The translations under genes and the position numbers were made by a program. This document shows positions 23,249-28,986 of a DNA stretch of 64,000 bases, piece after piece. Under the pieces are notes generated by a model. It was given only the letters and a program-made list of their open reading frames with translations, did no database searches and had not been told where the DNA came from. Location of the stretch: the NCBI RefSeq assembly GCF_057098645.1, contig NZ_CM169472.1; one strand, written 5' to 3'. Numbering within the stretch: position 1 is the stretch's first letter; each line of letters opens with the position of its first letter.

Positions 23249-23476
23249 TTACATGCTGTAACCGGGTTTCTTTATCAAAGCCTCCATTTGGGGCGCGATT
23301 TCGGCATCCCAGATAGCTTGCCAAGATTCTGGTTGAATCTGCTGTAGAGCAATGCTTATCGAACTGTCTTTACTGTTCATATGGCGAATAATAACGTCGG
23401 TAATATCTGCAGCAAGTGCTGCTTTTTGTTGTTCGTCCAGTTCACGCGGAAAACATTTAATGTCTATGTGCGGCAT
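23249..23476 (-). CDS. pptA: Tautomerase (4-oxalocrotonate tautomerase family)
   Basis: 75 aa starting MPHIDIK (Pro1 catalytic after Met removal). Confidence 0.8.
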
Positions 23477-23574
23477 GATTACGCTCCTTTTGAAAGATGT
23501 CAGTAAAATTAACACACATTGTGAATGTCGTGTGTCCGGTAATGCGTTTTTACGACAATAATGCCAGGGCAAGA

Positions 23575-24102
23575 TTACGAAAGCCTTCTCCCCGCAAGGA
23601 CTGACGCCAGGTAGTTTCTGTCCATGGCTGCTTTTCGCATCTTACGTCTTAACCCAGCCTTGAATACCTTATCATTCGTCAAAATATTAATAGCAATGTG
23701 CCGTATCCCTGAAAATAATTCTGCTGCATTTCCTCTTCTTATTTTGCAGTCGTCTTCATTCATTACCACGTCCAGACGCCAGTGCAGCTTATTCTCCACG
23801 TGCCAGTGGTTTCGGATTGCTGTGGCGAACTTCTCTGCGGTTAAATCAGCAGAACTGATATAATATCTGACCGTCATTTCTGGCTCTTTCTTTTGTTCTG
23901 CTATTATGGACCGAAAGGAGACTGCCACGCATAATTTCTTCAGCCCTTTCCATTCAAACGTGAAATCAATAAGTTCATCAGGAACATCGCAAACAATATG
24001 AAGACGGATTTCTTCTCTGCCGTGACTAAAATGCGAATTATTTAGTACAAAAAAAGCGGCGCACCTTGTTCTTTCCCAGATTCCTAATATGGCAACTTTA
24101 AG
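23575..24102 (-). pseudogene. ISAs1-family (H-repeat-associated) transposase, 3' fragment only
   Basis: Open frame of 175 codons with no start codon; C-terminal region with [22 protein letters not shown] typical of H-repeat ORFs; N-terminal half replaced by AT-rich DNA. Confidence 0.7.
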
Positions 24103-24266
24103 TTATCGCCGTCTATACTTATAGAAATTTCATCAGGGGTGACATAAATAGAATTTTTTTCATCCTCAATTGCCCATAACTGATTAATAAAAAAGTGTTT
24201 TTTATCATCTAATAACAAATCATCACATGTAGTAAAATTATTAATATCAAAAAAAATCATCAGCAC
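24084..24266 (-). CDS. Hypothetical small acidic protein (58-60 aa)
   Basis: ORF only; overlaps the end of the upstream ORF; no clear RBS. Confidence 0.3.
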
Positions 24267-24678
24267 AATTAATTTTTAAATTTAAAAAATAAAGAAAAAT
24301 ATTATTGATTGATTTGAGTGTAAACCACTTGTCATTAACAAATTTATAGCTAGATGATTTTATAAAATAATAATTATCTCCTGGTATAAAGGCATACATA
24401 TCATTTAAGGTTATACTCAACAAAAAACTACGACCTGGTTTAATAGTATTCCAGCGTTCAGGATTCGTATTAATTTCAAAAGGACATGAACCACCTAAGT
24501 AGTCCAACGTGATATTCCCAGAGTTGATCCTGAATGGTTTTTTGCATATCGCATCATATTCATCTCCTTTTCCATCTTTTACTTTCATAGGTAGATAATA
24601 TTTAGAAAAAAAATACGTGGTAGAGCTATTGTTAGTAAAGGTTATGTTAGCAAAAATCCTGTTATTTTTTTTACTCAT
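24247..24678 (-). CDS. Hypothetical protein; frame is open upstream to 24822 without a start (possible disrupted gene)
   Basis: 143-aa ORF from ATG 24678; same frame open for a further 48 codons upstream; an overlapping 38-codon ORF with ATG lies in another frame. Confidence 0.4.
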   Translation of the reverse strand: MSKKNNRIFANITFTNNSSTTYFFSKYYLPMKVKDGKGDEYDAICKKPFRINSGNITLDYLGGSCPFEINTNPERWNTIKPGRSFLLSITLNDMYAFIPGDNYYFIKSSSYKFVNDKWFTLKSINNIFLYFLNLKINCADDFF

Positions 24679-24956
24679 AGCTAATTGAGCATTGACATCC
24701 GCTATATAATTTATATGATTACATTTTTTCTTACACTCATCATAATTTTCGATAGGATAAATTAATGGTCTTCCTTTGATATCTCTCTCAAGCCCAAACC
24801 CGTATTTTTTATTAAAACCATTTCATCCGCAGTCGATTGAAAGGAATAGAAAAATATAATATTTACGATTGTCATTATTATGATTTTTTTATAGCTTGCA
24901 GCATTAATATATTTCTCGACTTATTAGTTAATGGAGAAGTGTTTTTTCTAATTCCG

Positions 24957-25184
24957 CTATTTTTTCTTAACTGAATTGCTTAATATTTCATCATTAATCG
25001 AGTCTATCTCACTTTCAATTAATCTTATTTCAAAATATCTTTCTATGTTATATGCATTCTCAAATATTTGATCTTTTTGTTTAGAGATCAGTTTAGTTGC
25101 AATACGGATATGTTCGTCATATGAAACTTCATCCTCTTTGCACGTTGAATATTTATCAGTAGTTGTATAATCCTGTGACCACAT
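24957..25184 (-). CDS. Hypothetical acidic protein (75 aa)
   Basis: ATG preceded by AAAAGGTGGT; net acidic; AT-rich. Confidence 0.5.
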   Translation of the reverse strand: MWSQDYTTTDKYSTCKEDEVSYDEHIRIATKLISKQKDQIFENAYNIERYFEIRLIESEIDSINDEILSNSVKKK

Positions 25185-25266
25185 ACCACCTTTTTATTAT
25201 CCCCATAATACCACTGAATATGAGACATTTCATGACATAAAGTAGTAACATGAGAATCCTTTCCCG

Positions 25267-25716
25267 TTACTGGATTTTTTTGCCATCTCTATACTCAAAT
25301 TTTGCGCCTATGTTAATTATATAGGACATATCCTTACTTGGGCTGACGAATGCTGCAAATTCATTACAACCTGTATAATTTATAAAACTGCTCATTGTTA
25401 AATCATTAGCTATAATCATTAATCTTCTCACGCCATCCATCATAAGAAATCTAGCATTCATGCGCCTACCTGTATTATATCCATATTTTCTTATATTAAC
25501 TTCCTTATTTCCTTTAACACCAAAGATCTTACTGAAATAATATTCCTCCTGTGCTCCCCATCTCAAAAGATCATCTGCTCTTTTTATCAAAACCAACTTT
25601 TGTGCCTTACGAGCCTTATCAATCATTATTTTAAAATGATCAGTTATTTTTTGCTCTTTCACACATTCTTCTGGCTCTGGCTTTGGTTGTCCAGAAGTTT
25701 GATTATTATCGTCCAT
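25267..25716 (-). CDS. Hypothetical basic protein (149 aa from internal ATG)
   Basis: ATG 25716 preceded by GGAAGGA; net basic; no family recognised. Confidence 0.5.
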   Translation of the reverse strand: MDDNNQTSGQPKPEPEECVKEQKITDHFKIMIDKARKAQKLVLIKRADDLLRWGAQEEYYFSKIFGVKGNKEVNIRKYGYNTGRRMNARFLMMDGVRRLMIIANDLTMSSFINYTGCNEFAAFVSPSKDMSYIINIGAKFEYRDGKKIQ

Positions 25717-25903
25717 AGTGTCCTTCCATTGAGAGAAAATCATCATTCGCAAATAGCAACTAAAAAGCAGCATTACTTGACCTTTCCCTGCATAACAATA
25801 TTTATAAAATAATACGTTTTATGATCTCACCTTGGGCTCCCAACAAGATAATTTCAGTTTTAAAGACTTTCACGAAAAAAATATAGAAATACCTCACCAC
25901 CCT

Positions 25904-26194
25904 TCACTTACCAATTAATCTCACAGGAAATCCAACTTCCTTACCACAAATACAATCCCAAGTAACACCTCCCAAAATTTTTGATACTTTAGGCTGCAAT
26001 GGCATTATTGACATTATAAATTTATCAAGTTCTTCGCTATATTTAATTCCCTTTATATTTCTTATTATTGATATTCTAGCAGTAAAGATAGCCGTCTCTC
26101 CATCTACACTAAAAGTGTAATTACAATTTTTTGTAATCTCATCAAATTCAACCGATAACAAATCAATATTATGGTTTGTAAACACTATGCCCAT
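25904..26194 (-). CDS. Hypothetical protein (96 aa), candidate immunity partner of the upstream papain-like domain
   Basis: ATG 26194 overlaps the stop of the upstream ORF by 26 nt. Confidence 0.45.
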   Translation of the reverse strand: MGIVFTNHNIDLLSVEFDEITKNCNYTFSVDGETAIFTARISIIRNIKGIKYSEELDKFIMSIMPLQPKVSKILGGVTWDCICGKEVGFPVRLIGK

Positions 26195-26672
26195 TCCATA
26201 CCTCCTTAAATTCCTGTTCAGTCATCAGATATCGACTCCCTTGATATGGATCATATATTATCACATTCCCAGCATCATCAACACCCTTAACAAGTACCCA
26301 ATGCCCTACTTTACTTCCAGAATCCCATATCATTGCTCCCCATGAACCAGTATTACTGAGGGCATATAAACTAGATTCGCTCACTGCATTCCCTTCCCAG
26401 CCGACATCAAATTTATTAAGCTTGTTTGCCAGCGACGTCATAGATGTTAATTCTGTTCCAATTACATTTTGCGTGACAAAAATATACCTATCCCTAAGCA
26501 ACATTTCCCCACAGGCCGCTCCACAGCCTGTTAAAGTCAATTGCTTTATTACATTTGAATCTAAAACCTCATCAAATACTGTCCAATTGCCACCAGCACC
26601 ACCTTCTAAAACTACCGGCTCTACAAATACTTTCCCAGAGATATTTTCTTCTGGTATTTTTGCGGGTATCCA
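26169..26672 (-). pseudogene. Orphan papain-like (C39-like) cysteine peptidase-fold domain without an ATG/GTG start
   Basis: Frame open 26672-26169; only TTG at 26540; motifs TGCGAACGEML (Cys) and GHWVLVKGVDD...IIYDP (His, Asp) in papain-fold order. Confidence 0.5.
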
Positions 26673-28144
26673 TTACTGGTGGCGTCTTCAAACCGCAGCT
26701 CGTTAAATCCGCTTCCTTTATAGGTTTTTGACCGGATGGTCATCTGCGTCTTCGTTCCCGGCAGGTCGCCCGGCGAACGGTTGTCCTCATGGTAGGTCCG
26801 CCCCATGATTATCGGCTGGTCCGGGTCGCCGTTCAGAAAATCAACAATCACCTCCTGGCCCACCCGCGGTATCGCCAGGTTACCGAACCCCGGCCCCGCC
26901 CACGCCTGCGACACCCGCACCCAGCATGAACTCGCCTCCGTCATCCCGTGATAACGGTCCCAGTGGAACTTCACCCGTACCCGGCCATGCTCGTCGCAGA
27001 AAATCTCTTCTCCCGCAGGCCCGGTGACAATGGCGCTCTGTGGCCCGTCCACCTTCGGTTTGTTTTGCAGCCGTGGACGCCACGTCCGGTCCGCCGGTAT
27101 CACCTCTAACTGATTTCCCAGCGTGGTTCCCTTTCCCTGGCTGCCGTGCAGCGCCTGCGGCTGGCTTCCTGACAGTATGCTCTGTACCACCTGCCATTCA
27201 CGGTTCAGCATCTTCTGCGGATGCCTCGTCAGCGTAAACCGCGTTCCCGGCCACAGCCTCGGCGAATTACTCTGCCCTGTGGCCTTTTCCGCATCACTGC
27301 GCAGGCTGTCCATCTGGTACAGCGTGAAATCCTTGCCGTGCTGCTCGTCCTTGAACCTTCCCGGATAATCAAATATCTCATACTGCGCCAGCTGTCCGTT
27401 CAGGTTCTCACCCTGCTGCTCATACATCCCCGGCCAGTCCGGCACCTTAAACGTGTAATCCTGGCTCTGTACCGACGACGGGCGGACATACGCCTCATAA
27501 CGGAACATACTGACACACTCTGTCTCCGCTCCTGCCGATGTGTCCGGGTTAAACGGAAACTCCCCCGCCTGTGACAGCCCCGCCACATCGTCGCACAGCG
27601 TCAGCTTCTGCTCCGGACTGTCCGCCGCAAACCGCTCAAAGAAGAAAATCCCCTCCTCCGCCCACAGCCGCGCCAGAAACGCCAGGTCGCTCTCACCGTA
27701 CTGGACACAGAACTCCCGCGCCGGATGGTCTTCATAAAACAGCGGAGTCCACTCCGTGACGCCGTTCTCGTTCAGTAACGTGGCCGATACCGTCCGGATA
27801 TCCTGCTGCTGGAAGATACGGAAGTTCTGCCGCAGCCCGCACCGCCATAACGGCGGCTCAATACGCAGGTGATAACGCATCTGCCAGCCATTGTTCTCCT
27901 GCATGCCAAAGCCCGCCACCACGCCGGTAACATAACGCAGCGGGATGACGCCCTGCCAGATGGTCAGCGTCGCCTTCTTCTCCAGCAGCATCCCCGCCGT
28001 CTGCATAAAAGAGTCGCTGGCAACATCCACACTCATCACAAACGGATATGACTGGTTCTGGATTAACCTGAAATTCGCCACTGCAAAGGTGTCCGGCTCC
28101 TGGCCGTCAATCTCCAGCGTAAAGCGCAGACCTTTTAAGGACAT
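26621..28144 (-). CDS. VgrG (T6SS spike) N-terminal gp27/gp5-like portion, truncated at ~490 residues
   Basis: Conserved VgrG blocks incl. SSCWVRVSQAWAGPGFGNLAIPRVGQEVIVDFLNGDPDQPIIMGRTY; C-terminal 20 residues unrelated; GC-rich then abrupt AT-rich junction near 26670. Confidence 0.85.
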   Translation of the reverse strand: MSLKGLRFTLEIDGQEPDTFAVANFRLIQNQSYPFVMSVDVASDSFMQTAGMLLEKKATLTIWQGVIPLRYVTGVVAGFGMQENNGWQMRYHLRIEPPLWRCGLRQNFRIFQQQDIRTVSATLLNENGVTEWTPLFYEDHPAREFCVQYGESDLAFLARLWAEEGIFFFERFAADSPEQKLTLCDDVAGLSQAGEFPFNPDTSAGAETECVSMFRYEAYVRPSSVQSQDYTFKVPDWPGMYEQQGENLNGQLAQYEIFDYPGRFKDEQHGKDFTLYQMDSLRSDAEKATGQSNSPRLWPGTRFTLTRHPQKMLNREWQVVQSILSGSQPQALHGSQGKGTTLGNQLEVIPADRTWRPRLQNKPKVDGPQSAIVTGPAGEEIFCDEHGRVRVKFHWDRYHGMTEASSCWVRVSQAWAGPGFGNLAIPRVGQEVIVDFLNGDPDQPIIMGRTYHEDNRSPGDLPGTKTQMTIRSKTYKGSGFNELRFEDATSNGYPQKYQKKISLGKYL

Positions 28145-28447: not shown

Positions 28448-28986
28448 AATTCCTCCTGTTCAGAATTTCTACAGCAGCAGGTTTCAAAAATCCGGAGAAA
28501 TATTCAACGAAATATTAATCACTTCACCGGATATTCTGATACGTACCTTCACTGGTCTATTTAAGTAATACAAATTGTTGGCGTGAATTAAGTTCCATTT
28601 TGTTCTCCTTAATTATGTAAGGAGTATTTGATCATGTATAAGCAATAAAAACAGCTTCAGGAAATAAGGAATATCGCAATTTTTAAACATAAAATGCGAA
28701 TCGTTCAATACAAAAAAGCAGCGTTGCGTAATCTTTCCCTGATTAAATACGCTACCGCCCTACCCTGATGACATGATCTGCACTGCACTATCATATCGAC
28801 ATGTTTCTCTACATGCGAAAAGATGTTTTATTTTCGGATTGTATTAAATTGATATTTCATATAAAAAACGAAATTACATCAATCATATAAATAGTTGTAC
28901 CAACTTTAATTACTATTCATAGCAAACAAATGAATATCCAGTTAACTACGCCAGTGATTCATTAACATTAACCTCCGGCATTATTG

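Follow-up and report, generated by a model that had tools for sequence, protein, structure and literature searches.

The open frame at the left edge of a type VI secretion cargo island belongs to a 515-bp relic of the H-repeat element ISEc1, a member of the ISAs1 family. It lies in a 64,000-nucleotide stretch of DNA, referred to here as the window. Comparison with full-length copies indicates that the relic is an internal deletion that kept both termini, not a one-sided truncation. We consider it very probable that a full-length ISEc1 insertion lost 777 bp from its interior and was then inherited as an inactive relic at one chromosomal site. The relic cannot encode an active transposase. The feature itself is already known, as a defective ISEc1 copy that RefSeq flags as a pseudogene. 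Positions of the relic, its parts and its neighbors are given in Table 1.

Table 1. The ISEc1 relic, its parts and neighboring features, with positions in the window
Feature	Position	Strand	Evidence
pptA, first core gene past the right end of the element	23249..23476	-	RefSeq annotation of a 99.9%-identical O145 genome; K-12 synteny
Whole ISEc1/H-repeat remnant, 515 bp	23565..24079	-	Element 1-52 joined to 829-1291
Right terminal inverted repeat, intact, CAGGGCAAGATTACGAAAG read inward	23565..23583	.	19 nt identical to K-12 and JJ1886 right ends
3' part of transposase gene, codons 229-378 and stop	23575..24027	-	BLASTP, NF033564, PF01609
Deletion junction CATTTTA/GTCACGG	24027..24028	.	Direct reading against K-12
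Retained left end with decayed left inverted repeat	24028..24079	-	Comparison with K-12, JJ1886 and BEN2908
Flanking DNA outside the element, read through to TAA 24103-24105; holds 3' end of 273-aa pseudogene	24080..24105	-	
Pseudogene of 273-aa protein, three frames	24087..24854	-	tblastn, intact KK19-02 protein
M35 metallopeptidase pseudogene, candidate type VI secretion effector, three frames	24960..25716	-	tblastn, intact 263-aa KK19-02 protein
Intact 96-aa ORF after the C39 piece, possibly an immunity gene	25907..26194	-	
C-terminal 166 residues (C39-peptidase-like) of a 479-aa PAAR-like toxin, joined to vgrG	26172..26669	-	Intact in PapM-32-1
vgrG, residues 1-491 of 801 kept	26672..28144	-	tblastn
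Second, separate ISEc1 fragment, element 1-155	28588..28741	-	BLAST against K-12 and JJ1886

On the minus strand, the interval 23575-24105 is translated as a stop, 175 sense codons and a second stop. The upstream stop is the TAA at 24103-24105 and the terminal one is the TAA at 23575-23577. This bears out the preliminary description, which reported a frame of 175 codons without a start, closed upstream by the same stop. The earliest in-frame ATG, GTG or TTG is the GTG at 23926-23928, and the frame has no start upstream of it. A candidate ATG is also found at 23875-23877. The frame had been assigned to an ISAs1/H-repeat transposase gene cut to its 3' part, and the assignment holds. In BLASTP, it is 96% identical to K-12 YdcC (378 aa; E 4e-107), and it scores 128.7 bits against the ISAs1 transposase model NF033564, above the cut-off of 70 bits. 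The match covers only positions 201-314 of the 314 in the profile. The match to Pfam DDE_Tnp_1 (PF01609) is likewise limited to positions 139-200 of 200, and PF13808 was absent from the retained frame in a Pfam search. In full-length YdcC, PF13808 (DDE_Tnp_1_assoc) occupies residues 9-94 and PF01609 occupies residues 102-343.

The transposase-derived part of the frame is restricted to its last 150 codons (23578-24027), which correspond to YdcC residues 229-378. The preliminary description was right about an N-terminal loss but put it at about 200 codons, whereas 228 are missing. It was also right that the frame encodes a C-terminal transposase region, but overestimated its extent. DNA homology to the transposase gene ends at 24027, not at 24105. 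The 25 codons upstream of this point arise by chance, as the frame reads on through the element's untranslated left end (24028-24079) and then 24 nt of flank. The HVENK motif in the Glu region, starting at residue 304, is retained. The AIDGK and TTDAMG motifs, which start at residues 107 and 170 and probably carry the catalytic aspartates, fall in the deleted part. A complete transposase would contain DDE_Tnp_1_assoc, the full DDE domain and three catalytic acidic residues, a set that the relic does not encode.

The anatomy of the element was read against the K-12 ydcC element, which is 1,291 bp long as defined by reading of its ends. The K-12 element has the terminal repeats CAGGGAAAGATCA on the left and CAGGGCAAGATTACG on the right. 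An inverted-repeat search inside the K-12 element did not report these true terminal repeats, and they were located by reading the element ends together with a weak BLAST self-match. In blastn, K-12 element positions 829-1291 align with 24027-23565 of the window at 98.3% identity. Positions 26-52 align with 24053-24027, in the same orientation and directly adjoining. The left end of the full-length JJ1886 copy matches 24027-24091 with 83% identity over 66 bp (E 1.7e-10). The right repeat of the relic, CAGGGCAAGATTACG at 23565-23579, and the left repeats of full-length copies agree at 11 of 13 positions. Its left repeat, CTGGGAAAGAACA at 24067-24079, is followed by element positions 14-52. Inverted repeats are present at both ends of the relic, with the left one recognizable but decayed. 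The two repeats match each other at 9 of 13 positions in the relic, compared with 11 of 13 in full-length copies, and the terminal CA of the left repeat is changed to CT (to AT in strain BEN2908). Alignment to a full-length element and a search for inverted repeats had been proposed in the preliminary description; both were run, and both termini were found.

Between the two retained segments, element positions 53-829 are lost, a total of 777 bp. The only microhomology at the breakpoints is one shared A. The relic measures 515 bp, compared with about 1.3 kb and a single long ORF expected for an intact element. Its left flank (...CCATATTAGGAAT) and right flank (GCATTATTGTCG...) have no common direct repeat that would represent a target-site duplication, which is weak evidence. 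With no visible target-site duplication, the flanks hold no record of the original insertion event, a point against the history proposed below.

The retention of positions 1-52, including the left repeat, argues that the relic arose by internal deletion and not by replacement of its 5' side. The preliminary description had proposed that the N-terminal part was replaced by AT-rich ORFs and suggested nested deletion. According to this proposal, truncation proceeded from the 5' side of the element, and incoming AT-rich DNA from the island replaced or overwrote its left half. AT-rich DNA (32% GC) does start about 50 bp from the end of the transposase homology, and default BLAST shows strong homology ending at 24027. 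However, element positions 1-52 and the left repeat intervene between the breakpoint and the AT-rich DNA, and the AT-rich ORFs are located outside the left end. In addition, a strain whose element carries another internal deletion has the same left end beside the AT-rich genes. A truncation of this kind is highly unlikely. Nested deletion was not borne out for the element; the element and the neighboring island genes have decayed independently.

The AT-rich ORFs themselves, compared by tblastn with intact proteins from strains KK19-02 and PapM-32-1, are frameshifted type VI secretion cargo genes and not novel genes that displaced the transposase. Residues 18-43, 33-219 and 218-273 of the 273-aa neighbor are found in different frames. 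This protein may confer immunity to the M35 effector. Both genes are intact in KK19-02, and the M35 gene is intact also in PapM-32-1. The M35 orthologue of strain BCE049 is toxic once targeted to the periplasm (PMC7904677). The cargo genes flank the insertion in all related genomes examined, and in this lineage decay extends to the entire cargo island. The interval 25762-28144 on the minus strand is a mosaic of the arrangements in KK19-02 and PapM-32-1. Compared to O145 strain RM9872, the window has a single-base indel within the AT-rich pseudogene region 24080-24700 (1,501 versus 1,500 bases aligned).

The gene order around the relic is narZ-narH-narW-narI, yddE, nhoA, yddH, pptA, the relic, the AT-rich ORFs, the C39-peptidase ORF, truncated vgrG, the PAAR gene, yncG and ansP. 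The region is 99.9% identical to E. coli O145:H28 strains such as RM9872. The relic is located exactly at the border between the island and the core and adjoins pptA, as expected from the preliminary description, which had placed a truncated mobile element at the island boundary. A recombination breakpoint coincides with the outer end of the right repeat, at 23565. In most of the sampled genomes with the relic, pptA is replaced by two hypothetical genes (561 and 636 bp) directly after the right repeat. ST131 strain JJ1886 lacks yncG and the entire island, and its full-length ydcC adjoins the last 60 bp or so (the 3' end) of pptA.

We searched 5,426 complete E. coli genomes for the deletion junction. 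With a 48-bp probe centered on it, the identical junction was found in 219 genomes, at one place in each and always on the chromosome. None of these 219 genomes carries a copy on a plasmid. A 141-bp probe identified 220 genomes. All 14 junction loci that were inspected adjoin yddH/pptA or two hypothetical genes that replace pptA. Fifteen sequences were sampled, namely that of the window and those of 14 genomes whose sources were cattle, humans, a baboon, chickens and a kite. The same relic of 514-515 bp is present in each of them, in three main haplotypes that are up to 5% divergent.

The recurrence of the same junction in 219 genomes indicates an old, inherited deletion and not a sequencing error. 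A sequencing or assembly artefact hiding a full-length transposase gene would account for the missing start codon and for nothing else. It would have to involve 777 bp instead of a base or two, and to have produced the identical junction in genomes that were finished independently. We give this explanation no credence. A full-length frame, whose recovery after correction of an error had been raised in the preliminary description, is not recoverable in this way.

No undeleted element was found beside the left flank of the relic. A synthetic 'ancestor' junction was matched at no place with at least 80% coverage in the 5,426 genomes, and its best matches were full-length ydcC elements of ST131 with a different flank. 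The B2 strain BEN2908 has an identical left flank and left end, and retains element positions 1-66 and 621-783. With these breakpoints, the BEN2908 remnant derives from the same insertion by a deletion of its own. K-12 contains a full-length element whose right flank is identical to that of the relic. Between them, these genomes preserve the left junction, the right junction and the interior, from which one full-length ancestral insertion can be reconstructed.

In the history that we propose, a full-length 1,291-bp ISEc1 would have resided between the distal end of the vgrG/PAAR cargo island and pptA. One illegitimate-recombination event in one lineage would have removed element positions 53-829. 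With that segment went the promoter-proximal untranslated region and the start codon, all of the DDE_Tnp_1_assoc domain, and two thirds of the DDE domain from its N-terminal side. The 515-bp relic would have been inherited at one chromosomal site since then.

H-repeats have been recognized for decades as apparently immobile companions of Rhs/vgrG islands in E. coli. The closest known system is ISEc1/H-rptE (ydcC, b1460) of K-12, an ISAs1-family element at the same chromosomal site and with the same right junction to the pptA flank. The relic shares with it 98.3% DNA identity over positions 829-1291, a right repeat identical over 19 nt and a homologous left end. Unlike K-12 ydcC, it is missing positions 53-829, the start codon and DDE_Tnp_1_assoc, keeps only the last third of the DDE domain, and has a decayed left repeat. 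The left neighbors also differ, being the vgrG/M35 cargo island for the relic and yncI and rhsE in K-12. The same feature is annotated in RefSeq as a pseudogene, 'ISAs1 family transposase, incomplete, missing N-terminus', equivalent to 23575-24036 of the window (I3Y_RS09760 in O145 strain RM9872; G6Z93_RS11290 in PapM-32-1). The relic is 100% identical to the RM9872 copy over 515 bp, and their coordinates are equal. The RefSeq annotation describes a truncation at the protein level only, and is silent on the surviving termini and the internal deletion. A defective H-repeat remnant is also annotated in the B2 strain APEC BEN2908 (APEC2908_RS07705, 'missing N-terminus and C-terminus'). Its left flank and left end are as in the relic, whereas its right end and pptA are lost, which represents a separate path of decay. 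By its transposase sequence and its terminal repeats the relic belongs to the ISAs1 family. It has neither a complete transposase nor full length nor a target-site duplication, and should therefore be classed as an ISEc1 relic rather than a functional ISAs1 member.

Sequence variation among the relics bears on whether the truncated frame has a function. The 150 retained codons are free of stops and frameshifts in all 15 sampled sequences. Differences between haplotypes are mostly synonymous, with ratios of synonymous to nonsynonymous differences of 10:2 and 15:7. By itself, an open frame with a synonymous bias is unlike a long-dead pseudogene, and this counts against the history proposed above. 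One explanation is that the frame is under selection, and that an N-terminally truncated product started from the GTG or ATG inhibits or regulates ISEc1, by analogy with the Tn5 inhibitor protein. However, many of the variable sites (for example element positions 1128-1176 and 1248) are polymorphisms that separate the full-length K-12 and JJ1886 alleles. A site-by-site table of 23578-24027 showed that K-12-type and JJ1886-type alleles are spread mosaically among the relic haplotypes. This pattern points to exchange between defective and intact H-repeats, by recombination or gene conversion, and, as the variants are shared with full-length alleles, no selection is needed to account for the bias. 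The idea that the truncated frame is under selection, first suggested by the synonymous excess, was set aside on this ground. Some of the changes found only in relics are radical replacements (R to W, L to Q, and SG to RR), and decay of this insertion in B2 strains has left a different, shorter piece that lacks this region. No outstanding start context or promoter signal is found either. A promoter and terminator scan of 23400-24400 gave nothing over shuffled sequences, with 5 promoter-like matches compared to 3.3 +/- 2.2, and the frame is probably not expressed. A role as an inhibitor or regulator is highly improbable. We conclude that the relic is a pseudogene, with a small residual probability that it is a functional fragment.

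With both termini present in the correct inverted orientation, the relic could in principle be a non-autonomous, MITE-like derivative of ISEc1 that full-length copies mobilize in trans. Genomes hold a median of 3-5 H-repeat matches. A MITE would be expected as dispersed copies that have the same internal deletion and their own flanks. Instead, all 219 copies are chromosomal, with exactly one per genome, none on plasmids and a constant chromosomal context. The left repeat lacks its terminal CA, and a target-site duplication is missing. In addition, transposition of H-repeats has never been observed, although ISfinder lists them as insertion sequences (PMC3032704). Mobilization of the relic is extremely improbable. 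The relic most likely has no present role, apart from offering other H-repeat copies or alleles a homologous patch to recombine with.

The other end of the island is marked by the second ISEc1 fragment. Its left repeat is well preserved and is followed by the 5' untranslated region and 11 nt from the start of the ORF. The fragment is joined to DNA that lies 140 bp upstream of the PAAR gene. Together, the two H-repeat fragments bracket an island of about 5.2 kb. The junction of the second fragment and its flank are found in 686 of the 5,426 genomes, never in another context. A composite transposon delimited by the left repeat at 28741 and the right repeat at 23565 was considered and rejected as unsupported, since the outer junction is found in only one context across the 686 genomes and no target-site duplication is present. 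These genomes show no sign that the island moves as a unit. It is very unlikely that either an internally started 150-codon product (for example an H-repeat inhibitor or regulator) is kept by selection, or the H-repeat pieces at 23565-24079 and 28588-28741 serve as handles by which type VI secretion cargo cassettes are swapped.

The relic has little importance beyond its correct annotation, to which three refinements can be added. As both termini are kept, what was lost is an internal segment and not one side of the element. The right repeat gives the exact boundary between the island and the core beside pptA. Finally, the three states of one insertion, namely the full-length element, the deletion of 53-829 and the B2-type remnant, provide a marker for the history of a variable type VI secretion cargo locus.
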